Notes: generated by a model from the letters alone, not told the origin. 64,000 nt of DNA from Euglena gracilis (GCA_039621445.1 CP154954.1:13682387-13746386); one strand, 5' to 3'. Positions 24,944 to 63,565 are shown, counted from the stretch's first letter. Numbers and translations are program-made.

Positions 24944-25075
<132 letters not shown>

Positions 25076-28279: not shown

Positions 28280-28720
<441 letters not shown>

Positions 28721-37985: not shown

Positions 37986-39175
37986 AAAAGGGTGGAAATT
38001 CAAGCAATGGCCAACAGCTTGGCAGGCGAGACCATGGAGGTCTGCCCCCAAAGGGAAAGGCAAGTCCAAAGGAGGAAAATGGTTTGCCAACCACCTTTCC
38101 TGGAAGTATTGCTCCTTTCTTTTCAGATCAGAACTCCTCAAGTTCCAACAGGTCATTGTTTTCTCCAGAGTTGGGCATTGTGCCAGAAACTCAACAATCA
38201 CTGAGGGGCAGAAGCCAAGACATTTGCAGTCTGTGGGAAGCTGCATACTTGAGATCTGTGCAGCAGATCACCGAGGTGCTGCTGCTGACAGAGGAGCACT
38301 TTCTGCGAGTGCCTCTGTTTCAGAGACTTCAGACCCAGTTGCCATGGTGGCAGAAAGTTGCCCCCACAAGGGTGTTGCAACTCATCACACAGGGGGTAAC
38401 CCCCCCTTGGGAGTCACGCCCCTCCCTCAGCACATTTTCTATACCAAAATCAGAGATGGAAATTCAAAAGGCAAAAAGTATTTTAAAAGACTATTTCCAA
38501 GCAGCAGCCATAAGACCAGTCCCCTGGAAAGGTACCCAACACATCGTCCCTTGGTTTGTAATCTACAAACAGGAGCCTCGGGAAGAAAAACATCGTTTAA
38601 TAAGCGATTGTCGCCAACTAAACCACAATTTTCTCCCCCACCCTTTCAAACTGGACAACATCCAGGTCATCTTCAGGCACCTAAAGAAAGGACAATGGGG
38701 AGCAAAAATCGACCTAAAGGACGCCTACTTTCATTTAACGTTGAACCCAACCCTAAGACCCTACATGAGGATAACTCTGGGGGAAACATGCTGGGAGTTC
38801 CAGGCAGCTTGTTTTGGTTTAAATGTGCTGCCAGAAAAATTCATGAGCCTCATGAAGTGCCTGGAAAAACGCTGGAGGGCCAAAGGCCTTTTATGCTTTG
38901 TGTACCTGGACGACATGCTCCTGCTGGGGGACAGCCAGAAGCAAGTGAGTCATGCTGGCAGATTTACTGCAGGGGGGTTTCAAAATCAACAGCAAAAAAA
39001 AAACAATCTTTCAACCCACCAAAATCTCCCACATTTGGTGTTCCACCTCAACCTGGCACAGGGATTGTTGCAGTTGGGGGCAGAAAAGCTAAAGATGCTC
39101 AGGAGGGAACTGGGAAAATTCGTCAAACACCAGTCCCTCAGTTGCAGAAAGATGGCCTCAATTTGGGGTGCATAA
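37958..39175 (+). pseudogene. DIRS-type reverse transcriptase
   Basis: KHRLISDCRQLN, AKIDLKDAYFH, FGLNVLPEKF, YLDDMLLL. Confidence 0.9.
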
Positions 39176-40160: not shown

Positions 40161-41260
40161 CAGTTGTTACAAAAGCAACAGATTCCCCCCTCAGTGGTTG
40201 ACAATTTGTTAAGTCACGATCTTTCATTGGCGAGATATGACTCTGCCTTCAGGCTCCTGTGGGGAGTTTTGACCATGTCCCAGCTAGACCTCAACACCGT
40301 AAGCCCAGAATTAGTCGCTTCTGGCATCATAAAAATTTTCACCTTCAGTGTGGCCCAGGCCAGGAATGATTATAGTGCTGTGGCCCAGCTTCCTGGTTTT
40401 CACATGTTAAGGTTTTACCCCTGTTGTCCCCCTAAAAAAGACAATGGAACACATCCACCCCCAGGTATTCGTCTTTTTGGAATCCTGAATCATTACTTCA
40501 GAAGTTGGCGGCAGCACCTCCCCCAGAGTGCCTCAGTGACCTGATGGACCAAGTCACTTTAAGTTTCAGACTCATATGTTTGCATCGCTCAGTGGACTTG
40601 AGCAGAACCTTCAGGACAGTCTCCGGAGGTTGATGGCAAGATCTTTTTCTTGGTCAGAAGAAAGGGTTGGAAACAGACTCAGTGGGAGGAAATTCGCCAA
40701 ATTCCTTCAAGTCCTAATATTTGCTCCTGGTTCAACATGAAAAACTATGTCAGTTTGACATCTCACTGTGCCCCCCGGGGGACATTTAGTATGAAGTTTA
40801 AAACCTCTCTTTACCCTCCTGTCTGGAAAAACCATTGGGAGTTTGACAAAACGATTGTTGGATAAACACGGGGCACCCCCCCCAGTGGCCCCCCCACTCC
40901 ACCAGGGGGGCATGAGTGTACATGTATAAACTGGCAGGTTTGTCCTCTGAGGAAGTGTGCCAAAATGGAAAATGGAAAAATGTGCAGGCCTTTTCTTCCC
41001 ATTATTTGCGGTGGGAAGCGGGAAAAAATGTGGCGGTTACTGTCCAAAAAATGGTGCACAAAGCCTCACTGGGGTCTTGTGTGGAGCCGGAGCTGTCTCG
41101 GACTCAGGTGAAGAATGTTCCAAGAGGAAGGGACATCGAAGGCGGAGCACAAGACGACAGTGAGCCCGCCACCCCGACCCGGAAGAGAACAAAAAAGTTG
41201 GTCAGCCCCCCCCCCCAAGAAATTTCAATTCACCCACAGACAGGCCAGATGGTCCTGTAA
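40160..41260 (+). pseudogene. DIRS tyrosine recombinase (fragmented)
   Basis: ARYDSAFRLLW, RLICLHRSVDL, and C-terminal GLSSEEVCQNGKWKNVQAFSSHYLR with the candidate catalytic Tyr. Confidence 0.75.
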
Positions 41261-42888
41261 TCCCCCGAAGTCTCAAACAGAGATCGAATGCAAGTGGCCC
41301 AATCTCAAGTTGCAGAGTATGCTCATGGGTTGGTTGTGTACCTGCATACCCCCGTGATGTTGGCTTTGAAGTTTTAGCCTTCTGGTCTGTTTTCTTTCCC
41401 TGTGTGCAAATGGGCTGCACATTTTATGCACAGAAATTGACCGTTGGACGACGTCCTTTGTCAGAATAGATCTTCGGAGTTGAGCAATCCAGGGGGTTGT
41501 GTGTCTCTGGCTGTTTTCTGTGACACAAGAGGACACTACCGGTGGTTGGAATGCCGATGGTTTTCGTACGCACGCCCCCCCCCCCCCCAGGTTGAGACCT
41601 TGGGACCTCCCAGCCCCGCCCTATTGGTCTCCCAGGCAGAAGCTGAGCCCGGGCTTGCTATTCCCCTAAACTTCTCCCCCACCCCACCGGCGTGGATCCA
41701 GACTGACCAGTTTTTGTCCACGGCCTGCATTGTGCCAAAGATTGGCTTCCTGTTCCGGCCTTTTTCTGAGACACCGAAGGCGGGAAGTGAGTGACTGGTT
41801 TCAAAAGTGACTGCCTGGTCTTTTGAAACGGAAATTGACCCCCGGGTGGGGGCGGGCGGGCTTGGTTTCGGAATGGTGTCGTCCTGCCAAACACAAACGT
41901 CTCCGCCCAGCGGTCCTGCCAGCCACCCGGATGCTGCGTCTGTACATTGTCCTGCCTCCCCCCCCGCCCACCCCTGCCGGTTCAGCCCTGCCACGGCCCC
42001 TGCCTCGTTCGCCCCACGGGGGCTTGGCTGTGTTGCTTTCCTCTACCTTGCGAATTGGCTGCCCTGCTTGCCTTTGCGGGCGTTTTCCTCTACCTTTCGC
42101 CTTGGATTCCTTGCTTGCGGTTGCGTGCGCCGCTTCATCAACTGAGGACATGAACTTTCCTCCTGAGATGAACTGCCCACCGTACGGTGTGGCAGCGGAA
42201 AGGGAGTGTGCTCCGCGCGCGCAGTTCTCACAGCTTCTCGGCCCAGTCTCCATGGTTTAGTCCCTCCGTTTCCTCCGCACAGCGTGGGGTGACCTCACTG
42301 GAAAGTTTTGCATCAGGCTTTTCTGTGGATGGAGGAGTAGGTTTGGTGTGGATGTTTTTCTTTTTCCTCTGCACAGTTGGCTTTAGTGTAAAAGAAACCC
42401 AAATAACACGGCGGAATGCCAAGTTACAAGAACCATACATTTATACCCCCTGTCCAGTGTATTTGGGCACTGCTTCCAGTGCCGTTATGAATTGATGCCT
42501 CAAAAGGGCTGTCAGGCCAGACCATTCGGGCTGCGCACACTCTGGGGGTGAGGTCCTGGTTCTTTTGCCGGCTTGTTGTGTCGTTGTTTTTTGGCGGGTT
42601 CTTTCTTACTGCTTTTTTTGTCAGAGTTGGCGGATCATAATCGTCCTTCGAACGACAAAATGAGTTTCACAATGCTGTATTTACTATCTGAAGACGAAGC
42701 AAAATACAACAGTGCGTTGCGCACTTTCTTGCTGCAGTTGGAGAAAAGCGAGAGAGCTGGAGAGTGTCCCTTCAGGCTGGCCGAGACGTGGACATACGCT
42801 GCAGGAAGGCGCCACCGCCGAGAAGAAGGGGAAGCAGAAGGTCGCGACAAGCGCTGCGATGGCAGAGGGCGACGAGGAGGACGAGGAG
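41247..42888 (+). repeat. Long direct repeat, copy 2
   Basis: Aligns with 35307-36955. Confidence 0.95.
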
Positions 42889-45605: not shown

Positions 45606-46226
45606 CCGTGAAGGGGGTGCACCTCCGTGGCACGCTCGCCGAGCTGCACCGGCTGGAGCTCCTGACTGCCCGCCCGCCCTGCACCGGCCCATGGCACTGG
45701 CCATGGGTCCGGTTGCTGGATTCCCTCGCCGCCCGCGGTGTCCATCTCCCCGCACGACCGTCCCTGCCCTCCGCAGCGCCATCTCCGCAGCGTCTGCCGC
45801 CCGCCGCTCCGCCCTGGACAGCGTCCTCGAATCCCACCGCCGCGCCGGCCATACCCGGAGGCGGGACGCCCTCCCCCAGCTGTGGCCTGAGCGCCCCGCA
45901 GTGATCTTCCGCTGGCTCAAAGCGGAAGCCCCTCCATTTTGCGCTCGGCCCATCCTCGACGCCTCTGGCTACCAGTGCATGACCCATGCCGCCGTCGACC
46001 AAGTGGTCCGGTCCTTCTGGGTGGATAGTGTACTATGGCAGCACGCCTCCCAGGACCGCGCAGCCCGCTGGAGCGCCTTCCTCTCCTCGGAGTTCGGCAC
46101 CCATCTGCCGACCGCCTCGTGCCCCTCGGTTCCCTGGACGGCAGAGCGGGTGCGGTCCGCCCTCTACAGCACGCGGGATCGCGCCGCACCGGGCATTACC
46201 GGCGTCCACCTGGCAGCGTGGAGGAG
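45606..46226 (+). pseudogene. LINE ORF2 linker and RT start (left of Gypsy insertion)
   Basis: AVIFRWLK...WTAERVRSALYSTRDRAAPGITGVHLAAWR (xAPGxDG-type motif); continues in frame at 62733. Confidence 0.8.
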
Positions 46227-46526
46227 TGTACGTCTGATTCCCAATTCCCAATTCCCAAAAGCCTTCGCTTTCGCCTTGGCGCACCTACTTGGGAACTGAA
46301 AATCAGAGTAACAGTAAAATCCCTTTTCCCACTTCCCAAGAAGCAAAGCACAGAGCAATGCAGGGAGGACGGACTGGATAACCAAGTCCGGTCCGGAGAA
46401 AAGGAAAGACAAAACAGAATACCACCTGTGGAGAGAGAAGGGGCACCCATTAGGAAATCCTAATAGGATCTGCTTCCATCCTAACTTCCTCAACGGAAGG
46501 GGACAGAAGCATACGCCTGGTACACA
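46227..46526 (-). repeat. 3' LTR (300 bp)
   Basis: Differs from the 5' LTR by one substitution, a 1-bp indel and one TTCCCAA unit. Confidence 0.95.
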
Positions 46527-46536
46527 TCCCCCTCCC
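46527..46536 (-). promoter_or_regulatory. Polypurine tract
   Basis: GGGAGGGGGA on the minus strand, directly before the 3' LTR. Confidence 0.85.
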
Positions 46537-47344
46537 AGGGCTATGCCCGAATTCTCCTTTGGACCAGGCATTCTGGCCACAGGGATTTCGGACACAGACC
46601 TGGTCTGTGGCAGGTGCACCCTGGCGCATCCACAGGGGCCCTTTCCGTCGCACAGGGGTCCACTCAAAGGGGGGGGCGGAAAGGAGGGGACCTAAAAAGC
46701 CCAAAACGCGCAAAATGGTTTCACCTATTCGGCGGTGGCTTATGGGTATATAGTATATTATAGCCCACTTGGGAAAATGGGGCTGGCATGTTTCCTTGCC
46801 AAGCAAACCCATCCACCCAGTTTGGGTGTGCCCAAGGCACTTGGGGTTGGGTCCATGGGCATTCCAGGAAAACCCATGGGGAGGGTGTGGAAGGAGGGGG
46901 CCTCTGACCAGTCAAACCTGGGCAGGGCGCATGGCCAGTCAAACCTGACCACGCAAAAGGAAATCTTACTCTACAAAACCAACTGCCGGCGACAGCATTT
47001 GCCCCGGGGGGAAAGTAGAGAGGAGTGGGGGGTTGTATTAGGCCAAAAAGTTGTGCTGTCTGGCAGCCTTAAGGCCTCAAACGGCCGAAAAGAAAAGAAA
47101 GGGAAAGGAAAAGAGGCCGTCGGCCCTGTGCGCTGCGTGTCGCACGCCCGCGAGAGGGGAGAGGGGAGAGGGGTGTGCATGCATGCGCACGGAATCCTGC
47201 ACATGGCAGCATCCCGGTGGGAACTTACTAGCGGCGAATACCGCAAAGGGTCTTCGAAGGGGTTGTTCGGGCGAATACCCAAACAGGGTGTCAGGCGAAT
47301 ACCTGACGAGGGTGCTGAACGCCGCATTGGCGCTCACAGACACC

Positions 47345-50300
47345 TCACCTGCCTTTATCGGCTGGGCGTTCGCGCACCTCACGCCAGTAGTCGTGTTGGT
47401 GGTCCCCTAATGGGTCCTCAACCAACTCCAGTTGGCGTGGAGAACGCGGCGGAGCTGATTCACTACGAATGGTGTTTAGCTCCGGATCGTTGACATCAAA
47501 GGAAGGGGTCTCCCAGTCCTTGATCCAATTATCCGGTAGCTTCTCCCTGGTACGTTCAGCATGATGCTGAAGATACCGTTGGAGCTGCTCCCAGAAAATT
47601 CTAGGCAGCATCACCGGCCAGATGATGTAATTCATCCGGGGATGATTCGCAGGCACCTGCGGGGGCATCCCCGGGGTCTGCTTGAAGTTGATGTCATACA
47701 TCCACCTCGCTGTCCGAGCTCTTGCGGTATGGGGCCGTAATACAGCCGCCAACCAACCTCTGAAGTCCACCAAATCGTGTTCTTCAGGAGGCCACAGTGG
47801 CAAGGCGTATCCGCCATGCTGACGCTTGGAGAACAGGGGGTAAACCTGTGTCTCCCAGTCGCCATCAGTCCAGAGGTAAGGCATTCTTGCCTTGGCGTGT
47901 TCTTCGACGGCGAGGCGCATTGCCCCAGCGTCGATCTGGAACTCACGGGCCATTCCCGTGTGGCGGTAGCTTTCTACCTTTCGGAAGTCGGAGTGCTTCA
48001 GGCGGCCTTCCACCTGCTTGTACTCCTTCTTCCACTTCTCCAGTGTCTCCCAGTGCTGAGGGACAGTGGTGGTGACTGCTCCATCAGCAGTCTGCACGAA
48101 CTTGGCTCCTATACAGTTGATGCACAAGGCAGGGATATCCCTGTCTTGAGCATTCTCACTGTAGGAGTAGTTCAAGCTGTGCTTCCACGCGTTCAGGCAC
48201 TCGCCACATACGAGCGCCACACAGTTCGGCACATATGCCCTGTGATGGAACCACGAGGATTGCACCTGCCGCTTGCACACATGCACAAGCGGTTGGTTGT
48301 GCCGCACATGGTGGCACACGGTGCACGTCCAGGCAAAGGACGTGCCGTGATGGAAATACAACACGCAGTCCTCACCAAAGTACTGTGCCAGTACTCTTGG
48401 TGAGCGCCTATTCCAGAATGTCCAGGTATGTTCCGGGGCATAATGGAAAGGTTCTCCTCGGACGAAGAGGGGCTGAATCCATTGATTCAGTGACCCTTTC
48501 TGGTGCCTAATAGCAGCCAGTTTCTTCGTCCTCTCTTCCACGGTGCCTAGTCTGGTCAGGATATCCTGAGTCCAGAGCTGGGCATCCGCAGACACGGGAG
48601 GAGAAGCAGGTTCATCCTCCTCCTCATCCGTCGATCCGGTGGAAGATTGGGCCTGTCGACCACGAGCCTTACCTTTCGGTTTGCTCTGGCCGTACCCGGA
48701 CGATGCAACGGCCGAAAAGTCGTGCATTGTCGTAGGGCCTTTTGGCTGTCCGCCAGTCTGACCTCCAGCGCCACCTTTCGGTGGTGGTTTTCCATCACCG
48801 CCTTTGGCAGGGGGCTTACAGGGTGCAGCACCCGGTTTGCCTCCTTTCGGCTTCGCACTCCCGGAATCAGGAGGCGACGCCTGCGGCTTACTCCTGGTAT
48901 CAGGAGCCGATGGTGCCGGAATAGACGTTTGCCATCTGGGCGAAGCGGGCATCCTGACCGCTGGGTCGCGCATGACGCTCCGAGGGGTCGGCACACGTTC
49001 CTGGGGTTGTTCAGCCGGCCGTCGCCGAGCAGGTTCATCCTGTCCGACGAGGCGTGGCACTGTGGTCGTCATCGGAATCGGTGCTTCCACAGGCGCTGGC
49101 GCTCCCAGAAACTCTGCCATTGTCCTCGGGACGGCAGGGACCCTGCGCGGTGTCGGTGGTCGTGGGGGTATCTCCTCCACTTCCATTTCGACATCCGGTC
49201 TAGGAGGTTGATCCTCCACAACCGCTGGCGCAGGTGCTAAGGGAGGTTGATCCTCCGCTGTAGCTGGTGCGACAGATGGCTCTGTCGGCTGGGGATCATC
49301 CCCTGAAGATGGTTGCACTGCTGCCGAAAATGGGGGTGCGGGGACACCGACATCTGGTGTCTCCACGACCTCAGCGGCGGAGCTTGATGCTACGCCTCCA
49401 CCTCGTGGCGTTAGTGCAGCAGCCACGGCAGTAATGCCGGTGACTACGGCGCCGAGCACACGGCCTCCTAATGAGGTGCGTGCTGCGGGGCTGGTAGGTT
49501 CTTCGAGGATATCCTCGACGACCATACCAGTCACCTCGGCTGGAGGCTCAGCCGTTGGAACAGGCGTAGCAGCCACAGGCATATCCCCTGCGGGTGCTTC
49601 GTCTGGCCTATGCTGTGCCAGAGTAGGCAGAGCAGCGTAGAGGATATCCTCCACGTTCTCACCTACCTCCTCAGGAAGTTCCTGATCTCCACCTACGGGT
49701 GGACAGACAGAAGCCGCCGCGGGAGCCGGGGAAACCGAACGTTCCCCTTCCGCTCGCGGGGAAGAGACGAATGATACAGCCGTTCCTGTCGGAGACGGCG
49801 GCGCTGCCTCCAGGATGGTAACGGAGGGGCTGCGGTCGCGTTCCTCCCGCCGCGGAATCGCGGTGGTGGAAGCGACTGACGCCTCACGTCTCCTTCGCGC
49901 CAGAGGTTCATCCTCCGGGGCGATGAAGGCGCACAGATCCTCGGGCGAACGAGGATCGTCGGGGTGCCATCGGCATCCCTGAGCGTCCGCCAGCCTGTAA
50001 AAGGCCAGCGTACTGCTGCTGGCGCTGTTGGGCTAGGGTGGCGGCCATGATGGCTGCACCCAGGCGTTGGCAGGCCTGTTCGGGCCCAGGAAGTCGCGGT
50101 AACGCGTGTCTTCCCAGACCTCGAAAAAGCCCTCCTCGAACTCCTGAACGCATGCCAGAATCGGCATACGCTGTTCGAGGATGGCCTTCCGGTGACACAT
50201 CAGCGGAAGGAATACCTCCCGGTCGAGGGTACCGCCAAACTGCCGCCGCAAATGTTCCTCCAGGGTGATATCGGCCAGGTGCCAGTTGGGGCGCAGGTGG

Positions 50301-52861
50301 CCGAGAATCCGACGACGAGGACCCTCGATGGCATCACCGTAATCCGGTGGCAGGCTTTCCATTCCAGGCCTATCGTCCTGGGGGTCACGGAGATGTATAT
50401 ACACCTCCATGACATAGGTAGTCCAGGCTCGCCACCAGAACTGCTGCAGCATAAAAATACGCTGCTTGTGGACGCGGCGACTTTTGCCCTGGACATCCGG
50501 GGCGTCGCGGCACACATGCATAAGCATGCGGCGTCCCATCTCCAGGCCCGGGTTATCCCGAGGCGGTGGAGGACTTCCGCGCACGCCGAATCCCCAGAAG
50601 TCGACAGGAAATTCCTGCCGGCAGTACTTACAGCAGAGGTCATACCTCTGCGGGTAAGCCAGGGAAACACGCTTAACGCGGAAGGTGGAGCCGTAATGGC
50701 TCACCAGCCACACCTGGAGGTTGTTGCACCACAACACCTCGATCAGGCGTTCGATGTCGGGGTGTAGTGGGTAGAATTCCCACTGCACGCCGAGGGGTCC
50801 GACTGTATGAATACAGTCGAAGACTGCCTTCAGCCTTCGGGCCAACACACGCTGGTCCCGAAAACCCAACTGGTGCAGGTAACTGCGACCAGTGGAATCG
50901 CTGAAGAGACCCCAGTTCTGGCAGGGGTATCCCAGCCAAAACCAGAGCTCCCAGAAACCTGGCTGGGCATCCAGCAAGGGTCTGCCACCTTCACCTTCGA
51001 AGGCGTACAGATCTATTCCGTAATGGAATAGTCTGACTCGGTTCTCGGTGTGGCGTAATACCACATCGATGACTGCTTGTGGAGGGGTGACGGGGCGGTT
51101 TCCTGCAACATGGTAATCATGCTGCATTCGCCAGCCTTCGTCCTCCAGCTCCTCCTTGAACCTGAGCATATGCTCAAAGTCCGAGAGGACTTCTGCTGGT
51201 TCTTCTTCTTCCTCACGTGCTGTTCCCTTACCTTTACCCTCACCCTTCCCTTTGCCGGCCACGCCTTTGCCTTCTCCCTTGCCTTTGCCTTCGGCCTTGC
51301 CGGCGTCCTTTCCTGTATGGCGAATACCAGAGGGTCGGGCGCTCGGTGCCGCAGGAGTCGGTTCGGTTCCTTCCCATTCCATCTCTGGGGAGGGACCTGG
51401 CCGCTCCGCTGCACGTCGCGGTGATGGCGTGGCTGGGCGTTGGTGAGGAGTCTGGCGTGGGCTTGGCTTCGACGCGGGGGGTCGCGGCTCCTTCCATACC
51501 GGAGGGATCGGCGGTGGCATTGCGGCAACAGGACGGCTCATCGCCACCTGTGCCTCTGCCGGTGGTCGTCCAGCCGGGGTATCCTGGCTGGCTTCCACCT
51601 GCATCGCCACACCGCCTTCCGCGTCCCGTGGGCTGGATCACCTGGGCTGTGGGGTAAGGTTCTCCGTAGTCCGGTCGCGCTTCAGGGTGGCAGGTAATAC
51701 TGCCACACCTGCCGGGGGCTCACCGGGTAATACCGGGGTTGCCACCCGCAGCTGCGGCTGGTACGGATGGTATGGGGTGTATCCACGGCCCTGAAGGGCA
51801 GCCAGAGAGGAGTAATACCTCGTCCGGTGCTTTTCAGACGCGAATACTGGCTCCTGCAGGAAGTGCCGAGCAAGCTCATCCTGCTCGGTTCCCGGAGGTG
51901 CCATGTGATAGTAGGGAGTCTCCTGCCGACGGGGGATATCCCCAGTCTGGACAGGAGCTGCACTGGGCGGTCGAGCTGCCTCACGGTGGGGAGGTTCATC
52001 CTCCACCACTATGGGCTCCGCCTGCCGCCGTGGCTCAACGCCAGGGACAGGGGCGACCGATGATGCTTGTGGCATCCAGTGCATGAACATGTGTTGGACG
52101 TATGCCTCAGGGGGCACGTCCGACTGTCCGGCTGGGAGCACGCGTGCGCCGCGCGGGTAATCCGCGTGCGTCGCGTACCGCGAGACAAATTGCTCCGCTG
52201 GCGGCTCGCGCGGCGGCATGCGCTGCGGCGAGGGCGGGCGAGCAAAAATTCTCGTCATCCCAGGTGGGACATGCACAGCCTCACCTACCGGTGGGGGCGT
52301 GTGCTCACGCATATGCACGGTGTGGGATCCCACCGGCGTCTGCGTTTGCAGCATGGGCGGCACATACACGCCCAGGTCCATCATGGTCTCGCCAGGCTCG
52401 AATCCGGAATCGGATGCCGACGAGAAATACCGTCTCCCCGTCATCAGGGCTTGACCACAGGGACACCACTGAGCCACAGGGGTGTTGGCTACTACCAACA
52501 ACTGAGCACAGTATGCATCCCAAAGGGCTTGCATAAAGGGCTCCGTTGGGGGGTGTGCGCACATACGCATCGCCCGCTCCAACGTCTCCGTAGTGCGGAA
52601 GATCATCTCTCCCGCATACGGGGGCAGGCGCGATCTGCGCTGCGCTGGTGGCTGAGGTGCCGGCTGCTGGACGGCAGATGGATCTGGTACCGCATATGCG
52701 GACCGGCTGCTGGTAGCCGCGGCGACTACCGGGGCTGAAACCCTCTCAGCATGTGGGGCACCCGGAATCGGGGCCTCAGCATACTGAGGGTACTGGGGGT
52801 ATGGCGCGCCAGAAGGCTGCGGCCATGGTGGACCTGGTCCAGGTCCGCGCCCAGGCAGCAT
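47345..52861 (-). pseudogene. Accessory ORF of unknown function, ~1,840 codons in one frame with two internal stops
   Basis: ORFs 51638-52861, 50033-51610 and 47345-49654 share a frame; the gaps are open apart from TGA 51638 and TAG 50033. Confidence 0.8.
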
Positions 52862-52928
52862 GATGCTACCCGAACGACGACGACAACGAAGGGTAACCTT
52901 GTTGTCTGTCGCTTTGAGTGCTGGTGCA

Positions 52929-52991
52929 CTGAAAAAGGTAGGCTTCTATCTTAATCAAAAACTCTGCGAGAAAGGTAGAGAAATAAAGAAG
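52929..52991 (-). promoter_or_regulatory. Candidate splice acceptors for the accessory ORF
   Basis: Minus strand CTTCTTTATTTCTCTACCTTTCTCGCAG and CCTACCTTTTTCAG upstream of ATG 52861. Confidence 0.55.
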
Positions 52992-53058
52992 TGCAGGGGG
53001 GGGGTATAAACGCGAAACATTCACATAAAACACACACATTCTCCAAAACGAAATCGTT

Positions 53059-53457
53059 TCAGAAAGTGTTTATGTTTATGTCTATATTATTGCGCTTGTT
53101 CCACAGCTTCCAATCCTGCTGGATATATCCAACAAAACTGGATGCTGGCTCCCAAGTGTCCTCCTCTGGCCCATACCCTTTCCAGCGAACTTTCCAGTAG
53201 TGCACACCCCTGTCGACCTTGTGGTCTATTATCTTATCGACCACAAAGTCGTCCGTTTCAGGTAATCTGGAACGGGGCTTGAAATATAGGCAGGGGATAG
53301 CTTTTCCGTCTGGGGGGCTTAGGTACGGTTTGAAGTCGTCCATATGGACGTCCTCAATCCCGTTGGGCAAGGCAACTTTATATCGCCCGCTACTACCTAA
53401 CCTCTCCAAAATTTCGCATGGGCCGAGCCAAAGAGGATCTAGCTTGGAAGACTGCAT
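53059..53457 (-). pseudogene. Integrase C-terminus (GPY/F-like) and chromodomain
   Basis: [12 protein letters not shown]...[19 protein letters not shown]...[18 protein letters not shown]. Confidence 0.92.
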
Positions 53458-53558
53458 GCGGGTGCGGTTATTCCGTACCCACCTGGACTATACACAGGTG
53501 TGTTGAAGTTCTGTAAAAAAGATTTCCGTTTGTTGAAATGAATTTCTGTGATACGTGA

Positions 53559-54416
53559 TTAGACTGCAGAGCGGAGTAATTCCACTTCTGCAAACCACGT
53601 TTCACAGCTGACGCTACTTCGGGCGGGTCTCTCCGAGGGGATATCCCCTATGGCCGGAGGGTCTCGTCCGAAAACAATTTTGTACGGTGAGTGTGGTAAT
53701 ACCAACCCTGGCAAGGTATTGATGTAAAATAAACACCAATGAAGAACGGATAACCAATTCTTACCCGAGTCAGCCAGTGAAAGGCGAAGCATATTGACAA
53801 CGAATTTCACGGCTGCCTCGGCTCTACCATTGCCTTTCAGGCGGTATATAATGGAAAAATGCTGCTCAATGCCGAGTAAACCGCACAAAGTTGTGAAAAA
53901 CCGCGAAGAGATCAAGTGATCTTGATCACTCACGATTTCGTTCGGTAAACCCATTAAGCAGATACATCTCTCCAGGAATATGGATGCCAAAATTTGGGCT
54001 GTCAACCCTGCTTTCCGGCATGGAATGGCTACTATGTACTCACTCAGCCGACAGACGACAACAAAAACGTAATCGTAAATTTGGTCATCTGATCCTTTGC
54101 AAGGTTCAAGTTCGAGAAAATCCATGCAGAGGGACGTCAAAATGTCTGGTGGTACGGGGAAAAAGTCCATCGTACCAGGGGGGGTACCTCCGCGCGGTTT
54201 CACAGCCTGGCTAATTTGGCACCGTTGCGAAATTCGCAAACAGCGCGAATATAAATCTTTTTCACTCAGGGTTGTGCAATATCTGCGACCCACTAGTGAA
54301 AGAAGTTTGGGGGCCCCAGGGTGACCATGGTTGTGATAGCTCAAAATCACATCATCAACCAGGTCTTGGGGTATACAATATTTATAACCAGATTCATTCC
54401 GGAAAATAAGTCGCAA
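53559..54416 (-). pseudogene. Gypsy integrase core
   Basis: HNHGHPG zinc finger (second Cys changed to Ser), MDF, IVSDQD, GNGRAE. Confidence 0.92.
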
Positions 54417-54436
54417 TGGTGATAGAGAGTAATTCT

Positions 54437-56110
54437 CTATGGGTTCAGTCGATTCACAATGGTACTATATATAGGGTCACGCGAATAATCCCATTCGCGG
54501 AAAAATAGGGGGGTAGGAGTTTCTGTACGCGTAATGCGACGGGGTCCGGCAGTGTGTCCACGCCGGCGCCTTCCACGCAATGGTGAAATGGCGATGCTGC
54601 GATATACCCGGGAAACGGGTAGTGAATCGAGCATGTTGTCCGCAGCGTCGGATCGACGTGCGAACTGGTCAGCCTCATGGCTGCCATGAAAAGTCGCATC
54701 ACCCTCATCCGGGTTCCCAGGATAATACCAGGGGGCTCGGCTGAGAGGATCCGCAACTTTTTGCGTGTGACCTGGGGTATAGATAACCACCAGGTTAAAC
54801 TGGCTCAAGAACTCATGCCATCGGCATCTTCTGCCCACTGATGACATGGCCTTGTTCAGGTCCTCGGTACACCAGTGTTGAAGGCTCTCATGATCCGTCA
54901 ACACAAGTATCTGGACCAAGCTGCTGGCTATCCAGCTGCGGAATTTCTGGAGAATAAGCACAATGGCATATGTCTCCTTTTCGCGAATGCTCCATTTAAC
55001 CTGTCCTTTCCCGTTGTCGCCCTGTAGCTTCCTGCTGAAGAAAGCCACAGGTCGGAGCTCATTTGCCGCATTATGCTGGCTAAGAACTCCGCCAACAGCG
55101 TAATCGCTGCTGTCGACCTCCAGGACATACGGTTTATATGGATCCGCGATATCGAGAACCACGTTCTCGAGGAGCAAGTCCTTGATTTTATTCAAGGCCT
55201 CGCGCATTTGGTCATCCCAAATGACTTTTGCGTTATCGGGTGTCCGATTTTTGAGTTGTCGGGTTAGGGGTACCGCGATTTTCGCGAAATCTTTCATGTA
55301 AATCGCGTAATATTGGGCTAATCCCAAAAATCCCTTTAAATGCGTTAAGGTCTTAATGACCTCAGGAGTCCATTTCTTAATGGCCTCCATCTTACTGGGT
55401 GCGGCTTTACGCTGCCCGTTGCTCAGGATATGCCCGCAAAACTTAATAATTTTGCGAAACAGGTGCATTTTGGAACCCTTCACAAAAAGCAAATGCTTTT
55501 TGAACGCGGATAATACCGCCCGCACATCGCGATAATGCGGTTCGAGGATATCCTCGCCCGATTTCGCGGATGGCGGTTGGGTTCCCACCAGTACATCATC
55601 GATGTACACCAGAGCAAACGGTAAATCGCGCAAAACCCACTGGATCATGCGTTGAAATATGGCTGGGCCATTCTTAACACCCATGGGGAGTACCGTCCAT
55701 TGGTACACACCCTTGGATGTCACGAATGCCGTGTACGGTTGCGAATCAGGATGCAAATGCATCTGATGGAAGCCGTCTTCCAGATCAAAGATTGACCACA
55801 ACCGGTTATCCGATTGTTTGGTGATCAAATCCTCGATCAGCGGTAACGGGAAGGGGTCATCCTTCGTTTGGGAGTTCATATACCGGTAATCAAGCACTAG
55901 TCTCCACTTTTTCTGACCAGACTGGTCAGCGGGTTTGGGCACCACAAAAGCTTGTGATGTCCACTCGCTCTTGGAAGGGATAATTCACTTCCGCTGGATG
56001 AGCTTCTCAATCATCTCGTTGAGAGCTTGTTCGCGTTCACCCGAACAACGGAAAATTTTCCGGTGCATGGGTTTAGCGCCATCCTTGAGCTCGATTTTGC
56101 AAACACCGAA
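54437..56110 (-). pseudogene. Gypsy reverse transcriptase - RNase H
   Basis: WRLVLDYRYMN, FDLEDGFHQM, LPMGVKNGPAIFQ, YIDDVLV, VDSSDYAVGGVL, EKETYAIV, TDHESL; in-frame TGA at 55985. Confidence 0.95.
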
Positions 56111-56319
56111 CGGCCCGCGAATCGCGGGGTCGATGTCGCAGGCGTAAACTGGATTATCCAGTACACCATGGAATTCACGAGTAATTCGCGAACAATAGTC
56201 AGCAGACTTGGAGTGTTGGTCCGCACTCTCAATGACCGCAGAAATCTGCGTTGAGGGTGTGGCATCCCCATCCGTACCAAGGTGTCTTGGCACACGCACA
56301 TCGGATATTCCGAATGCGT

Positions 56320-56730
56320 CAAAGAAACAAACGCGAAAAATGATTTCTTTAACCGGTGGTAATAATATACCACAAAAATCCTCAAATAGTGGTACATCAG
56401 CGGGGAAATTCCACCAATGGAAACACACATAGGATAATTGGTGAAACCAATCCGCATTCGGATTGACGGGTATGAGGAGAGCTCCTCGCGCTTCATCGCG
56501 GAGGATTTTCTCCACCACATCCGGGATAAGTTTTGGGGGAGGGTGCATCCAGAGCACCGTATCACCCCAAAATTTTAGAAATGCGTTGGAATGTCGCGAC
56601 CAATATCGCGACAAGCGCGCATGCGCTTTTGATGAAAACGCATCAATTTCTAACGACAATTCGAAGGAATCAGCCAAAACCGCGATTTTGGAGAACCATT
56701 CCTCCAAAATACGGTATTGACCAAAGTTAA
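56320..56730 (-). CDS. Dam-like (N6-adenine) DNA methyltransferase domain inside Gypsy pol
   Basis: QYRI...IDAFSSKAHARLSRYWS..NAFLKFWGDTVLWMHPPPKLIPDVVEKIL...ALLIPVNPNADWF is colinear with the DIRS MT at 39715-40160. Confidence 0.8.
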
Positions 56731-57569
56731 AGGCGTTCCATACGCGCATCGCGTAGGTGTCGACCTGGTTCGCGGGCTGAAGAGCGGTAACGCAATTCAG
56801 GGATCCGCAAACATAGGTCAAGGGTGTGTCATCCACACTCCCTAGGGGCATTCCCGAGGGTTGATGGGTTGGATGGGTGTATACCCAATCCATATCATGC
56901 CAGATGGAATTGGGGGAGGTGTGTGACACGGATTTCGCGGTCCCAAACAACAAGGCAATACCTCGTTGTTGGAGCACTTGATGTACGGTCGCGCATTGTG
57001 ATCCGCAACCAAGTGTATGGTTACGCGAAATCGGGATTAGTGTTGGTGTTTGGACTAGACATCCACAATCGAAATCTGGCTGGGCGGAAATTCTCCTACA
57101 GTGCACACATTGGAAGGAAGTGTCGGAGTAGTGGTCCTGGTCGCGCATGTTGGTCTGGTGAGGGTGTGTGTAAAAGTTGGGATGCGCTTTTGAAGCTGCT
57201 GGGGGGTGTACAGATGTATCTGAAAGCGATACATCTGCTGGAAAACGGGGTATTGATGCAGCTGGGCGACTACTCGACACCGTGATCACTTCAGGCCTTT
57301 GGGCTTTCGTCTTGTAACCCAGTGAAACGAGGGGGGTACCGCTACTCGCTTGCCCTGCCTCATGGGGAACGGAAGTTGGTGTGTCTACGGGCAGGGGGTG
57401 AACTTTCTCGGTACACCCGGTGTAGAAAACGTTGGTTGGTGTGGTTGGTAACGGGGTAAAAGTTTTCGAAAACGGTGTGGAAAAATTGGTGGTCGTCGCG
57501 GTTGACGCCACAGGTGATGAAGGTTTGGGGGGCAATGAAGAGAATGGTGATGTGCGCAAACCGTGGGAG

Positions 57570-57930
57570 TGGCAATCCACTACCAGACGGTGCTGACGTA
57601 AAAAGGGGTATCCCAGAATTACGTCAGAACCATGGATTCCGGATTCATATCCTCAGGTATCCGGAAAATTTTGCGGTTGGGGGGGGTGTGAGTGGTGCTT
57701 GGGGATGAGGGGTAGGACAATGTCCAAAAAGCATCCCAAGTCACCACCGCACATGGGGGTGTTGTCAGCCGTCGTAATTTTGATCGGCTTCTTGGCTTTC
57801 ACCAAAAGGGGGGTTGGTATCAACCCGAACCGAAAAAGTAGTGCAATGCGACAACCAGTGTCAATGAGAATTTTGACTTTTTCACAAAAATTTTGGATTT
57901 TGATTTCTGCTTGGACCAAAAGTTCCATGG
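57570..57930 (-). pseudogene. Aspartic protease
   Basis: KILIDTGC...ITTADN...(TGA 57653)...DVILGYPFL, in frame with the MT and RT. Confidence 0.88.
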
Positions 57931-58197
57931 GGGGTAAGCAAAGTGAAGGGTCTGGCGAAAATACGTTTTCTTGCCAGCTTTCCCATGAACCCTTTCCTAC
58001 TTTGCACAACATTCCGAGCGGAAAGTTGGAGTGGGGGGTGGGGGACCCGAAAATATTCCGGGTACCGACCAGAAAGGCAGATGGGCCTGGGGGGCAGGGT
58101 TGATCAGGTCCTACCTCCATCTGTTCATCAGCCCAGAGGTCCGTGCCCTCGGACCTCGGGCTCCCCTACTCCAGGTCCGAACCGGCCGAATAGGCGG

Positions 58198-61100
58198 CTA
58201 TGGGCCTTTTAGAGTATAAACGTATTTCAACGTGCGCACCGCCATGCGGGCCTCGTCGAAATCGGTATCCGTGGTCTCATCCCCCTCCCTGCCCGAAGCC
58301 GGGGTGTCATCCTCCAAACAAGATATCTTGAAACCGACTTTATGGCGGTTGGAGGAGTGACCCTTGTCACCGCGATTCATACCGCGATGACGTTGGCCAG
58401 GGCGGGGAGAACGAGAACGCGGACATTTGGATGAGTGGTGATCACTCGATCCACAAAGCGAACACCGCGATTTGTGTCGCGATTCTGAGTAACGGGGGGA
58501 TCGGTTTCCCGATTTCCCGTCAAACCGTCGTGGTGACCGGGTATCCCGTAGACCATGACCGGTGTGTCGGGGTTTTCCCGATGAGGATCGCGAAGAAGAT
58601 GATCCGCTTCGCGAACGCGATCGCGATGTCTCGCGATGAGAATCATGCTTCTTGGCCGGGGCACCGGGTGACCTACCCCGAGGGGTACCGTGTTTCCGCT
58701 CATCGCGGAACGGGATCCGGGGGCTAATACCACCGGAACGGGGACCCGATGACCGTGAATTGCCCGATTGGCGTGAAAACGCGGAGGAACCCGAACCTCG
58801 TGATGAGGTCGAGCCTCGCGGACTCTGAATACGCTTACGCGCTTCAGGATTAGGACATTCCCGAGACATATGTCCCGATTTGTTGCACAAAAAGCACACT
58901 TTATCCGTGGCTTGGTCCGAAGAACGCGGGTATCGCGTTTTCGATCCCGTGTTTGGTGAAGTGGGTGAAACCGGTGATTTTTGCAACGCGTTCACCGAAC
59001 CAGCCGGTAATCCAGCGGTTGGGTGTGCGTTATACGCGGATTTAATCTGACCAAGAAGCTGTGATAGCTTCAATTGCTTGGAAACGTAGTTCCAGCGTTG
59101 GTCAAGAGTCATTGGATGACTCGCCAACTCCTCACGGTGGATATCCTTGATGAGGCTAGGCGTGAAATGCATGAGAACAGCATCAAACTGTTCGCGCATT
59201 TGCTTTTCACTGAGTTCATCCACTTCAGCGGCAAGTCCTTACCATTTGGCATACCAAAGGTCAGTGGACTTCCACTTGCGGTCGGGTGGGGCGCCTTGCC
59301 GCCACTTGGTCTCCAGGGTAATCCTAGCGACCAAACTTGAACTGGTGGAAGCGTATTGCTCCACCAGGTCATCAAAGGAAACGCGGTAGCGAATCACGAG
59401 TTGTCGCGCGCGTTCCTTCTCATCCCTTGGGAGGCAATCGATGAATTCCATCTTGATCACCTCCGGGTTTGTGTCCTGGGTTGGCCCTTTTAATGCCCAG
59501 TAATACTCCGAGTCCCGGAAAAACTGTCTCCATGTGGTTGGATCACCATCCCACTGGGGTTTCACCTTATTCGCGATTGCGATGGTGCCCTTGAAGTCTT
59601 TCTGAGAAACCCAATGACCCTCGGTGGTATTCCGCGGTTTTGGGCCTGGGTACGGTCGAGCACCAAGCGTATCCTTTCCGGATTCTTGTCGGAATCGCAA
59701 AATTTCTGGTGAAGGTGAATCCTGGTATCGGAAATCCGGTCGCAAACCCTGTTGGTCACCCGTAATACGGGGACTCTCCGGTGTGGGGGTATGTCGCGCA
59801 TGCAACGTGTGACCCACTCCCGGTGTACGGGTTTGGCTCATTCCACGCACAAGCATGGAATGATGGATTTCTTGGTGGGGAATTGGCGGAATCGCCGTGT
59901 TTTCCGCAAATTCGGTTCCCGTAATGGGAAATTCATCCGAAAACTGGGTTTGGGTTGTGGACAAGGCCAATTGTGGCACAATTCGCGGAATCGCGGAATG
60001 TGACACTCGGGACACGGGTGGTGGTGGTGCATGTGCACCCAGAGCCGGGTTATGGGAACGCGACTCTGGAACATTTGGCGCATCTTCGGCAATGCATACT
60101 GCCGAATTGCGGTGTGAAACCTGCTGTTGGTTGGACACAATATCCAAACCCACAGACAAGTCATGCACACTTTGCTCCAAATGCTCAACGAGTTGGAGTT
60201 GGCCGCAAATACGGTCAACTTCGTCCTCCAAAGCGCGAATACGCTTGCGGTAACGGGAAAAGTCATCCAAGTGCGGAATCCTTTCGGAAATTCCGGTAAC
60301 ATCTTGGACAAGTTTCCCGTGAGACTTATCCAATAAATGGAGTTGTCCCATTAATGCTTTTACAGCATTTGAGAGAATCTGCAAAGGTGATGTCACCTTG
60401 GTTGGTGTGGTGGTGGGTGCAACCGGTGCAGGGTTATCCGACAACACGGTTGTGGTACCCATGGACAAATTTCCGGGTTGTGGCTTATCCAGAAACGCGG
60501 AAATTCGCTCATCCAACCTGGTAATCTCACTTTGCGTGGATCGGGCATTCCGATTCACCGATTCCTCAAGCCGTAATAGGCTGTTGCAAAAATCTTGCAA
60601 GGTTTCCTGATTGTTAGTGAGCATTCTGTCATAAAATGCCTTGAAATCAGGGTTCTCGGTAATCCGAGAACTGGAACCTGCAGGTAGAGACTGCATTTCC
60701 GTTACTTTGGTAGACACCGATGCATACCGGGTCTGGAGTTCCCCAATAGCAGTCTGAATATCGCTAATGTCCGGAACTCGGTGGGAAAGTGCGGAATAGC
60801 TTTGTTGCAAACCCGCAATGGCCGAGTTAATCCCGCCAATGTCGGATTGCAACTGCAACTGCAGGGAATCCTGCCGTTGTGCTACTTCCGCTACTTTCGC
60901 GCTCAGATTGGATAATCCAACCTGATTCGCGTCACAATAGCAGGTTTTCTGCTCCAAACGGGAAAGTCGCTCCTCCAACTGCCGCACATACGTGTGGGGA
61001 GCAAAATTCTCGTTTGCTTGTGACTGGAATTGCCGAAACTTTTCCGTTTCATCGCACAACTGCATAATGCGGTGTTGCGATTCATGGAAAGTTGCGGACA

Positions 61101-62141
61101 ATGTGGTGAAATGGTCCATAGACACAAATCCACCACTGCTGGATGTTGCAGACGAGGGATCTCGTGCATGCAACTGTTGTTGCAAATGCGACAACGCGGA
61201 TAAACAGGACTCCATTTGTCCCGATAAATATTGTAGTGAGTCATGCAAGTGCAGAAACTTGGAGTCATTCCGGGTTTCCGCTTCATGCATGCATTCACTA
61301 ATTTGCCGGAAGTTTTGCGGGAGTTGTTGGCACATTTTGTCAAAGGTTTCCTGAAAGTTTGCAAGGTCAATACCCGCACTTTCGAAATTCCTCTGACAAT
61401 ATTTGCCAACTTCCTGCAAGTAATTCCAGAAGTATTCCAGCTTGGTGAAGACATGTTTTTGGTTGTCCTCATCAAACTGGAGCACTTTGTTGAGTGCGGT
61501 TGCACAATCTGCAACGCATTGTTGCACATGGTTGAACTGCTTCACAAGGGGGTGATCCCCTGCAAGCCGAGCAACGATATCCTGCACATCCTCAGCAGTG
61601 AGGAGCTCCCCAGTTCCCTTCCCATAGCCATCCATGGGTTGGGACGTACCAGAGAATTCTGGTACCACTAGGCGAGTCTCCGGTTGCCAAGGTAGTGCGG
61701 GATAGCACCCAAGATCGGGTGGTGGTGGCAAAGCTCTGTAAGGGCTTGCCGGTGGAAGAGCGGGTGGTGGTTGAAAGAAACAGGTGTTTCTAGCCCACCA
61801 TCACCAGAGAAGCCCAGTGGCGGAATCACCACGGGTCTCTCCGGTGTGCGCAGCTGCACCATTGCCGCAGACAGAGGCGAATACCCCCGTTGTGGCAAGG
61901 TGCGTGCGGAAGAGGCCGCATTAGCCTCTGAAGCCAATGATGTGGAGGGCTCATCGCCGACCACCGTCAATGATGACAAGTGTTGCAATTGTGACAATTG
62001 AACCAATTGTGCCTCATCGGCGTGGGAACTGGAAGCACTTTCACATAAAAGCTTCCAATCCCCATTTTCTTGGTCAATATCTTGCAATGATGCCTGTAAT
62101 AAGGCATAGTTGAATTGATGGTTGGGGCCTGTGCTTTGCAT
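58198..62141 (-). pseudogene. Very long gag: coiled coil, capsid-like region, two CCHC knuckles
   Basis: ATG 62141; frameshift ~61735; heptad-rich region; KPQWDGDPTTWRQF; in-frame TAA 59239; CFLCNKSGHMSREC and CSLCGSSDHHSSKC. Confidence 0.85.
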
Positions 62142-62330: not shown

Positions 62331-62420
62331 GTAGGATCGAACAAATCTGCTACCAAGTGTAATACCTGGTAGCCTTTCTGTTTGTGAAGTGTGTATAGGA
62401 TCGTAACCAATCTGCTACCA
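62331..62420 (-). promoter_or_regulatory. Two primer-binding sites complementary to initiator tRNA-Met
   Basis: TGGTAGCAGA at 62411-62420 and 62346-62355, each followed by CGATCCTA (complement of the initiator T-arm GGAUCG). Confidence 0.85.
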
Positions 62421-62422
62421 AG

Positions 62423-62728
62423 TGTACGTCTGATTCCCAATTCCCAATTCCCAATTCCCAAAAGCCTTCGCTTTCGCCTTGGCGCACCTACTTGGGAACT
62501 GAAAATAAGAGTAACAGTAAAATCCCTTTTCCCACTTCCCAAGAAGCAAAGCACAGAGCAATGCAGGGAGGACGGACTGGATAACCAAGTCCGTCCGGAG
62601 AAAAGGAAAGACAAAACAGAATACCACCTGTGGAGAGAGAAGGGGCACCCATTAGGAAATCCTAATAGGATCTGCTTCCATCCTAACTTCCTCAACGGAA
62701 GGGGACAGAAGCATACGCCTGGTACACA
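62423..62728 (-). repeat. 5' LTR (306 bp)
   Basis: Matches 46227-46526; TGTGTAC...GTACA on the minus strand. Confidence 0.95.
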
Positions 62729-63565
62729 GGAGGGCCATGCCATCGTGGTGGTACGCTGCCGTGGCGCGCCTCTTCGCTCTCGTGGAACAACAGCGCCGCT
62801 GGCCCCGGAGTGTCTGCAGGCCTACGTGGCCATGGTGCCCGTGTCCTCTGGCGGCCCGGCCCCAATACCAGCGGCCCATCACGGGTATCACCGTCCTGGA
62901 GCTGATGTATCGAGTGTAGGCCAAGGGGATTATCACCTCCTGGGCCTCCGCACTTGAGCAGTTCGTGCTGAGTGATGCCGCCTTCGGCTTCCTCTCGCAG
63001 GGGGGTACTCTGACGGCAGCACAGGTGGTCGCGGACCTCATCGAGCGCTCCGCACGCGAGGGCTCCGAGTTGTGGCTCGCGTCCTTCGACGTGATGAAGT
63101 GCTTCGACTCCCTCCCGTGGTGGGCGGTGTTCGGCACCCTTCGACATGCGGGTGTCCCTGCAGCCACGGTGGACTGCTTCGAGGCATTTTACACCCCCGT
63201 CTCCCGTCGCTTCCGGTATGGCCACATCGACGGCTCCTCTTAGCACGCAGCCAATGGCTTGGCCCAAGGTTGCCCTTCCTGCCTTGATCTCTTGAACATC
63301 CTGTTTGAGGGGTTCCACCGATGGGCCGCCACCTGCAGCTGCGGAGTGCATACCGCCGGGCACCGCGTGGCCTCCCTCAGCTTCGCCGACGATCCGGTCC
63401 TGGTGGGCTCCGGCCGCGACGCTGCCACCTCCCTCATCTCCGCCGACCTGCGTTGGTGCGCCTTGCTGGGCGTCCGCGGGACGAACGTGCAGCTGTGGTT
63501 GTCCCTCGGCGCGGGCCTCTCCGTCCCTGTCCAGAACATGGTCCTGACCTCTGTTCCCGCCCATG
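62729..63565 (+). pseudogene. LINE reverse transcriptase (right of Gypsy insertion), 3'-truncated
   Basis: QRPIT..LELMYRV, AFGF, SFDVMKCFDSLPW, GLAQGCP, SFADD. Confidence 0.9.

Follow-up and report, generated by a model that had tools for sequence, protein, structure and literature searches.

Extra genes are rare in long terminal repeat (LTR) retrotransposons, and the cases that are understood reveal dealings between the element and its host: envelope proteins serve cell-to-cell spread, and methyltransferases and demethylases serve epigenetic evasion. In REM1 of Chlamydomonas, a chromovirus, a third open reading frame (ORF) lies in reverse orientation and encodes PHD and chromo domains, which are chromatin readers. 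Here we consider a third frame, ORF3 (positions 47345–52861, minus strand), of a complete 16,504-bp chromovirus-type Ty3/Gypsy element found in a 64,000-nt stretch of Euglena gracilis DNA (GCA_039621445.1 CP154954.1:13682387-13746386). The whole of this stretch is referred to as the window, and positions are counted from its first letter. ORF3 is very probably a genuine element-borne gene that once encoded a single long protein and has decayed in this copy. The element shares with REM1 a chromovirus backbone and an accessory gene that possibly acts on chromatin. Unlike the REM1 gene, ORF3 reads in the sense direction and lacks any recognised domain.

Dam domains are reported from many eukaryotic LTR elements in a recent preprint (Fernandez-Moreno et al., bioRxiv 2026, doi 10.64898/2026.05.21.726589). 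According to its accessible text, chromodomain-bearing elements make up 30.9% of Dam-carrying transposable elements (TEs), the conserved Dam catalytic triplet is Asn-Pro-Pro, some elements bear a further epigenetic module after pol, and a subset named 'EpiLTRs' (Cymbomonas, Euglena) adds a cytosine-5 DNA methyltransferase (DNMT) to Dam and the chromodomain. The same text names retrotransposon-borne cytosine methyltransferases in Symbiodiniaceae and streptophytes. Other elements with additional coding capacity include bdelloid rotifer LTR retrotransposons with captured extra ORFs (PMC5408684), an orchid Ty3/Gypsy element with an m6A demethylase domain (PMC9289625), and Retand elements of plants, in which a long region extends from pol to the 3' LTR (PMC11963269).

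The element studied here appears to resemble a DAM-LTR chromovirus, on a weak Dam match, and the figures or supplements of the preprint may already catalogue the family. The two have in common a Ty3/Gypsy-type LTR organisation, a chromodomain and a Dam-like stretch in pol. However, the match in our element is below the cut-off, and its pocket triplet reads His-Pro-Pro in this copy instead of the family's Asn-Pro-Pro. It differs from the EpiLTRs, as these are described in the preprint text, in having no recognisable DNMT (no PF00145 match in any ORF), and from both groups in having a separate ORF of 1,838 codons that contains two uncharacterised domains and is not mentioned in the Results text of the preprint. 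The elements of Symbiodiniaceae and streptophytes are similar in carrying a retroelement-borne epigenetic enzyme module, and one compact block of ORF3, block A, contains a PCQ-containing stretch as DNMTs do. Their DNMTs, as the preprint text presents them, are recognisable family members, whereas block A fails to match Pfam and its similarity is lost on masking. In the rotifer, orchid and Retand elements extra coding sequence likewise either occupies the interval from pol to the 3' LTR or extends pol, is non-envelope, and often has an unknown role. As far as the cited texts describe them, these ORFs belong to recognisable families (esterase, exonuclease, ALKBH) or to non-chromovirus plant lineages, whereas the ORF3 product is far larger and belongs to no Pfam family. 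Envelope genes of errantiviruses and related Ty3/Gypsy elements (PMC13524379) occupy, by that account, the same position as ORF3. They are presumably expressed from a spliced subgenomic RNA, and ORF3 has a candidate acceptor-like site upstream. In contrast to them, it has no signal peptide, fusion-protein features or membrane anchor. LTR elements with extra ORFs are already known, and elements with epigenetic modules have been described recently. New here are the size of ORF3, an unnamed family formed by its second compact block (block B), and the fact that one third of a very successful element is devoid of recognisable domains.

The frame itself and the sequence preceding it are as follows.

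47345..52861, minus strand: ORF3, 1,838 codons and a stop in a single frame, with internal TGA at 51638-51640 and TAG at 50033-50035
52862..53058, minus strand: spacer between the chromodomain and ORF3, closed by stop codons in every frame; includes a C9 run (52996-53004) and a pyrimidine tract leading to AG at 52964

The initial annotation had joined three separate ORF calls into one frame interrupted only by the two internal stops, and this reading holds: the offsets between the calls (2,688 and 1,605 nt) are both divisible by three. Translation of the minus strand through the stops, which had been proposed as a check, gives 1,839 positions starting with ATG (52859-52861), and the only stops are at codon 408 (the TGA), codon 943 (the TAG) and the terminal TGA (47345-47347). 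Over the same stretch the two other minus-strand frames contain 38 and 62 stops and the plus-strand frames 25, 51 and 42, as compared to three in the ORF3 frame; 2,000 mononucleotide shuffles averaged 56.7 stops, with a minimum of 36. The G+C content of its three codon positions follows the high-low-high pattern of coding DNA (e.g. 0.66/0.42/0.69 in block A). Downstream of the TAG, 150 codons are open and the first Met occurs only at residue 1094. Therefore one ORF with point nonsense codons fits better than three genes.

ORF3 is encoded on the gag-pol strand between the end of the chromodomain ORF (TGA 53059) and the polypurine tract and 3' LTR, where the initial annotation had placed it. It starts 198 nt past the chromodomain stop and ends 808 nt ahead of the polypurine tract (46527-46536). 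Given the stop counts against the shuffles and the anatomy of the element, the earlier suggestion of a genuine extra coding frame at the env position of a chromodomain-bearing Ty3/Gypsy element is well founded. The pyrimidine tract ending in AG at 52964 is a candidate acceptor-like site upstream of ORF3. The length of the C9 run in the spacer differs among copies, with indels recorded at 52957/52996. In the DNA run X1, contigs with about 1/5 of the depth each carry a 1-nt or a 2-nt deletion in this run, and deletions in it are likewise carried in the RNA-type runs X16 and X17.

The ORF3 protein alternates Pro-rich stretches with two compact blocks, as had been noted from the sequence. Low-complexity Pro-rich sequence (17–28% Pro per 60 residues) makes up residues 1-516 and 943-1323, linkers that are probably disordered. 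Residues ~558-942 and ~1425-1794 form the blocks, in which W, C, H, F and Y account for 15–37%. Each of the two Lys/Gly-rich basic tracts (residues 517-547 and ~1324-1400) leads into an acidic run and then into a W/C/H/F/Y-rich block.

51191..51313, minus strand: basic tract 1 (Lys/Gly-rich) and acidic run, residues 517-557; contains an 18-nt tandem repeat
50036..51190, minus strand: block A, residues 558-942, W/C/H/F/Y-rich, with one partial relative
50843..50935, minus strand: 31-residue stretch LGYPCQNW...GFRDQRVL in block A, the sole part resembling cytosine-5 DNA methyltransferases
48602..48892, minus strand: basic tract 2 (Lys/Gly/Pro-rich) and acidic run, residues 1324-1420
47480..48589, minus strand: block B, residues 1425-1794, small uncharacterised protein family
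48107..48325, minus strand: Cys/His module CxxCH...HxC...CxxxxCxxC...CxNC in block B (alignment A1), probable zinc sites
47570..47674, minus strand: C-terminal motif PGMPPQVPANHPRMNYIIWP...FWEQLQRYL of block B (alignments A1 and A2, the latter with 12 invariant columns)

Block B belongs to a small family of proteins. An exhaustive phmmer search with block B as the query (459 residues) retrieved 14 of 1,835,955,588 representative sequences at E≤1e-3, with 11 at 1e-10. Their identity to the query is 26–96%: the set consists of one 96% fragment (E 1.1e-151), one 52% relative, eight sequences at 26–40% (E 4e-22 to 2e-13) and four weaker ones, and apart from the near-identical fragment the E-values range from 7.8e-34 to 1.7e-4. 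One relative of 431 aa spans the entire block B (query residues 38-412 of 459). Alignment A1 was formed by block B of the window and 13 relatives; P0013 (1,060 aa), which matches the low-complexity lead-in only, was excluded. Ten Cys/His positions are common to the relatives in this alignment (CxxCH, HxC, CxxxxCxxC, CxNC), followed by a conserved C-terminal motif PG[ML]P.Q..NHP..N..IWP and then W..P.FD; alignment A2 has 12 invariant columns across 7 sequences. Block B of the window contains the Cys/His module and both C-terminal motifs. Judged from these alignments, block B is a real conserved domain family that is absent by name from any library, and the Cys/His pattern probably reflects zinc binding at two or three sites. 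Since block B is conserved in the eight remoter relatives, which are 23–40% identical to it, at least this part of ORF3 has been under protein-level constraint. Two relatives of block B (P0004 and P0009) and the single relative of block A (P0015) have a basic-then-acidic low-complexity lead-in resembling that in the window.

A word-based search at near lengths yielded no relative of either block, scans of viral contigs yielded none of block B, block A or the reverse transcriptase, and two metagenome scans yielded no relatives. No kinship of block B to block A or to the first segment of ORF3 (seg 1) was seen by hhalign and self-BLAST, hence no internal duplication was detected by these means. 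In the ESM Atlas the clusters nearest to block B are of the RING type, with the score 0.80, which is a lead only according to the notes of the tool. The RING cross-brace has the spacing C-x2-C ... C-x-H-x2-C-x2-C ... C-x2-C. In block B the second and third ligand pairs are ~17–25 residues apart and none of the 14 sequences of A1 matches Pfam RING, and a RING finger was rejected.

For block A, the nearest clusters in the ESM Atlas all belong to PF00145. The best score, 0.87, is again no more than a lead by the notes of the tool; the number of features in common, 132 of 256, is typical of chance matches or distant relatives according to these notes. DNMT profiles were built from 15 loci (E. coli Dcm and 14 phage methyltransferase loci), of which 9 and later 13 were used; L009, a near-duplicate of L002, was left out of the 13-sequence profile, and L011, a 185-aa partial sequence, of both. 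Alignment of block A by hhalign scored 30.4 against the 9 DNMTs (P 0.0025, probability 12%; reached by 0 of 215 shuffles) and 24.9 against the 13 (P 0.017, probability 2.7%; reached by 0 of 183 shuffles). The confident part of both alignments is the 31-residue stretch, set against GFPCQ...GF.D.R of the enzymes, so that GYPCQ of block A is aligned to GFPCQ of the DNMT consensus with its catalytic Pro-Cys-Gln motif. The glycine loop (DLFAGiGG) and the ENV and PQ.R.R positions of DNMTs have no counterpart in these alignments. With the 31 residues masked the scores fell to 11.6 (mean of 111 masked shuffles, 14.95) and 16.2 (mean of 123 shuffles, 15.8). Masking abolishes the signal, thus the resemblance is that of a single motif and not of a domain. 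Unfiltered hmmsearch (--max) of the DNMT profile against block A gave 0.1 bits, which was exceeded by 6 of 500 shuffles; PF00145 had no match in block A even at E≤10, and tblastn of block A against 50,697 phage records gave nothing at E≤10. Membership of block A in the cytosine-5 DNA methyltransferase family was rejected on the loss of signal after masking and the lack of a Pfam match.

The N-terminus of ORF3 is Pro/Gly-rich, and a hydropathy scan, with no dedicated predictor run, showed neither an N-terminal signal peptide nor a transmembrane anchor. The single near-threshold hydrophobic stretch (residues 1131-1149) is Ala/Gly/Thr-rich, with the best 19-residue Kyte-Doolittle mean of 1.6. By these features the ORF3 product is not an envelope protein, which agrees with the initial annotation. 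ORF3 is not a nested element either: direct or inverted repeats of at least 18 nt bounding it were not found, Pfam detected no TE domain within it, and BLAST of the window against itself revealed no second ORF3-like or element-like sequence.

Several other explanations of ORF3 were weighed. That ORF3 arose by chance in GC-rich DNA, or mirrors a gene encoded on the opposite strand, has practically no probability: the G+C content of 61% in this region makes random ORFs longer, but three stops stand against a minimum of 36 in the shuffles, the opposite strand has 25–51 stops per frame, and block B has protein relatives with E down to 4e-22 beyond near-identical copies. The interval between pol and the 3' LTR is where errantiviruses and Athila-type elements of plants have their envelope-like genes; an envelope-like nature is nevertheless very improbable for a protein with no signal peptide, no clear membrane anchor and no Pfam envelope family, over half of which is Pro-rich low complexity. 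The three pieces of the frame could be separate cistrons (~407, 534 and 895 codons) sharing one frame, the internal stops being original gene ends. A basic tract, an acidic run and a compact domain are present in both the second and the third segment (seg 2 and seg 3), the 431-aa relative covers block B alone, the block-A relative P0015 begins with Met right before the Lys/Gly tract, and P0001 begins at the Met preceding block B. These database protein starts, however, stem from an automatic gene caller on short contigs. Three independent pieces would share a frame with a chance of 1 in 9, seg 3 is open over its first 150 codons although it has no Met there, while at the shuffled stop density ~1% of stretches of this length would be open by chance, and in-frame stops interrupt gag and pol of this copy as well, so that nonsense decay is active here. 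We regard three cistrons as improbable.

Hardly better are the chances that ORF3, or block B alone, is a captured host gene that travels as a passenger and contributes nothing to the life cycle of the element. The relatives of block B look stand-alone (323–431 aa), retroelement domains are absent from all 14 sequences of A1, and capture of extra ORFs or domains by LTR elements is documented, at least for the elements described in PMC5408684 and PMC9289625. But the relatives are short context-free fragments, so missing TE domains say little; a very high copy number was reached with 5.5 kb kept open save for two point stops in this copy; and distant relatives have the same lead-in layout. If ORF3 is a passenger, it is a clean example of very large captured cargo. 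It is likewise unlikely, if slightly less so, that block A is a degenerate cytosine-5 DNMT and the element an EpiLTR variant with the DNMT remnant in a separate ORF3. The PF00145 clusters of the Atlas, the two hhalign scores that no shuffle reached, the aligned core G[FY]PCQ...GF.D.R, and the Dam, DNMT and chromodomain LTR elements reported in the preprint text (doi 10.64898/2026.05.21.726589) argue for this. On the other side, the masked scores are about at or below the shuffle means, so that the signal is one motif, PF00145 and the phage records remained silent, six of 500 shuffles exceeded the hmmsearch score of 0.1 bits, the hhalign probabilities and the Atlas feature count lie in the low range given above, and the glycine loop and the ENV and PQ.R.R positions have no counterpart.

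We now return to ORF3 as a gene of the element. The explanation as a whole, that ORF3 is the third gene of a 16.5-kb chromovirus, codes for a modular protein that is no envelope protein, and is decayed here, is one that we hold to be somewhat favoured. As to function, the initial annotation had suggested an anti-silencing or nucleic-acid-binding factor, or a captured host gene. The functional part of our reading taken separately, namely a nuclear nucleic-acid- or chromatin-binding accessory factor aiding the element or blunting host silencing, is tentative and rather doubtful; it is suggested because of the basic tracts, the metal-binding signature, the lack of membrane features, and the company of the chromodomain and the Dam-like domain. 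In working copies ORF3 would be translated into one protein of ~1,838 residues from its own cistron after the pol stop, perhaps expressed through the acceptor-like site upstream. The basic tracts and the zinc module would bind nucleic acid or chromatin in the nucleus, and the protein may help the RNA or DNA of the element or blunt host silencing beside the chromodomain and the Dam-like domain.

A number of observations weigh against this reading. The block-B relatives could be host genes, and block A has only one partial relative (P0015), 68% identical over 17% of the query and diverging beyond. Searches of Pfam (E≤1, E≤10), NCBIfam and PDB sequences gave no meaningful match for any part of ORF3, and seg 1, which was searched only by Pfam, NCBIfam and hhalign against the block-B alignment, is matchless. 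AlphaFold models of both blocks, which had been proposed as a check, were made, but their mean predicted local distance difference test values were 45.2 (block B, 14-row alignment) and 34.7 (block A, single sequence); being so low, they are unusable for fold search and provide no fold evidence. An intact copy was not seen, and neither stop site is among the 40 variant sites listed of 1,049. Finally, the contigs from RNA libraries are possibly contaminating DNA, and they show the unspliced form only.

A gene without a recognised domain makes up one third of a very abundant 16.5-kb element. If it acts on chromatin or silencing, it is a new component for retrotransposon 'epigenetic toolkits' and a handle on the expansion of the family. 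A bolder proposal, to which we give a low probability, is that ORF3 codes for a retrotransposon accessory protein of a new class, in which the block-B zinc family, so far seen in only a few proteins, is joined to a block A having the DNMT catalytic loop only. If true, this protein, the Dam-like domain and the chromodomain would make up a three-part kit that reads, mimics or blocks host DNA-methylation marks, and the kit would help explain how the family became so numerous in a genome that is CpG-depleted and presumably methylated.

The boundaries and coding regions of the element, other than ORF3, are listed below.

62729..62733, minus strand: target-site duplication CCTCC, 5' side, direct reading
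62421..62728, minus strand: 5' LTR, 308 nt, begins TGTGTACC and terminates GTACACT; 290 nt at 99.31% against the 3' LTR
62398..62420, minus strand: primer-binding site (PBS) TGGTAGCAGATTGGTTACGATCC, abuts the 5' LTR; direct reading; tRNA-3'-end type (TGG...)
58201..61800, minus strand: gag frame, made of an 853-aa coiled-coil-like part, in-frame TAA at 59239-59241, and 346 aa with a CCHC zinc knuckle
57656..58165, minus strand: protease part of pol with the D-T-G motif; an in-frame TGA comes next, at 57653-57655
56441..56674, minus strand: Dam-like (N6-adenine methyltransferase) stretch between the protease and reverse transcriptase (RT), PF05869, E 3.5e-4
54440..55984, minus strand: RT and RNase H; RVT_1 E 5e-28, RT_RNaseH_2 E 3e-25; preceded by in-frame TGA at 55985-55987
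53562..54464, minus strand: integrase; rve E 1.8e-7, Integrase_H2C2; frame differs from that of RT
53062..53487, minus strand: SH3-like domain and chromodomain; Chromo PF00385 E 4.1e-11 after SH3_Tf2-1; another frame; stop TGA at 53059-53061
46527..46536, minus strand: polypurine tract GGGAGGGGGA, abuts the 3' LTR; direct reading
46225..46526, minus strand: 3' LTR, 302 nt; in minus-strand reading begins TGTGTACC and terminates GTACACT
46220..46224, minus strand: target-site duplication CCTCC, 3' side, direct reading; identical 5 nt at both element ends

The LTR pair was recognised as direct repeats at 46237-46526 and 62440-62728 with 99.31% identity across 290 nt. The putative PBS after the 5' LTR reads TGGTAGCAGA... 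from 62420. In Pfam searches the domains on the element follow in the order CCHC (zf-CCHC, E 2.3e-6), RT, RNase H, integrase, SH3-like and chromodomain, with the D-T-G protease motif before RT. Because of this order and the protease motif the element is assigned to chromovirus-type Ty3/Gypsy LTR retrotransposons; LTRs with target-site duplications, a PBS and a polypurine tract, the order gag(CCHC)-protease-RT-RNase H-integrase, and a C-terminal chromodomain are all present.

A slightly diverged second copy of the LTR end and the PBS (ACACT TGGTAGCAGATTT...) is found at ~62334-62360 on the minus strand, ~60 nt downstream of the genuine site. A skip of 64 nt (62331-62396) in a single X1 contig fits copies differing in this duplication. 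The N-terminal part of gag (59242-61800, minus strand; 853 residues) looks like a coiled coil by eye and has a weak match to NPV_P10 (E 1.1e-5, under the cut-off); with such a part before the zinc-knuckle part, this gag is unusually long for Gypsy.

The Dam-like match scores 20.7 bits, under the gathering score of 28.1 for PF05869, and covers positions 23-104 of the 169 in the model; NCBIfam gave no match for this stretch. The interval between the protease and RT, within the open frame 55988-57652 (minus strand), contains ~450 extra residues, including the Dam-like match and a Cys-rich patch.

This copy of the element is dead: ORF3 is cut by two nonsense codons, and gag-pol by three in-frame stops (one TAA in gag, two TGA in pol) as well as two frame changes, with the integrase and the chromodomain each out of the RT frame. 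As gag and pol are also damaged, the stops in ORF3 reflect general decay of the copy and are no peculiarity of ORF3. A variant genetic code was rejected: TAA, TAG and TGA all occur as internal stops, and ORF3 terminates in TGA. At five ORF3 sites the window departs from almost every contig of run X1; two of these differences are third-position synonymous and three residue-changing, too few for any statement on selection.

Runs of one organism (14 of the 24 listed) contain 62–72% of the sampled words, and a leaf-litter metatranscriptome contains 30%. In run X1 (DNA) 102,231 contigs map to the element at at least 90% identity, hence the element family is very abundant. The 244 mapped contigs of the metatranscriptome run X17 cover all 30 bins of the element, and one contig (2,402 nt, 51118-53523) extends from the integrase into ORF3. 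This coverage fits full-length transcription of the element, and the family may be transcribed. As to splicing, none of the 15 joints listed (162 further) came from the RNA-type runs X15–X17, which is uninformative either way. A variant without ORF3, represented by one X1 contig joining 47005 to 52999, was dismissed as unreliable, with 24 nt on the shorter side and both ends in C-runs. At another joint of run X1 (54404-54486), one contig has CCCTAACCCTAACCC, a TTAGGG-kind repeat of telomere type, inserted between two parts of the element. The observed/expected ratio of CpG is 0.59 in the left flank (1-35000) versus 0.88 in the element (46225-62728), and the flank has a TpG/CpA excess of 1.31. 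The contrast suggests a CpG-methylating host and a young insertion. The LTR-rich large genome, its CpG depletion, the CCCTAA-type repeat seen at a joint and the Dam-like domain would accord with published accounts of Euglena gracilis.

No Rfam families were found in the window. Elsewhere in it, segments 35307-36955 and 41247-42888 form a tandem duplication of ~5.9 kb with 90–98% identity, which encloses an RVT_1 ORF (37958-39175, E 2.4e-10) of another retroelement, unrelated to the Gypsy element. The window also contains many long microsatellite-like arrays with units of 5, 8, 10 or 12 nt, e.g. (CACAG)n and (GTTGT)n, some related arrays being 4–5 kb apart.

3234-3533, 8199-8359, 13741-13894, 18074-18411, 19341-19501, 23518-23776, 24898-25122, 28284-28815: microsatellite-like arrays

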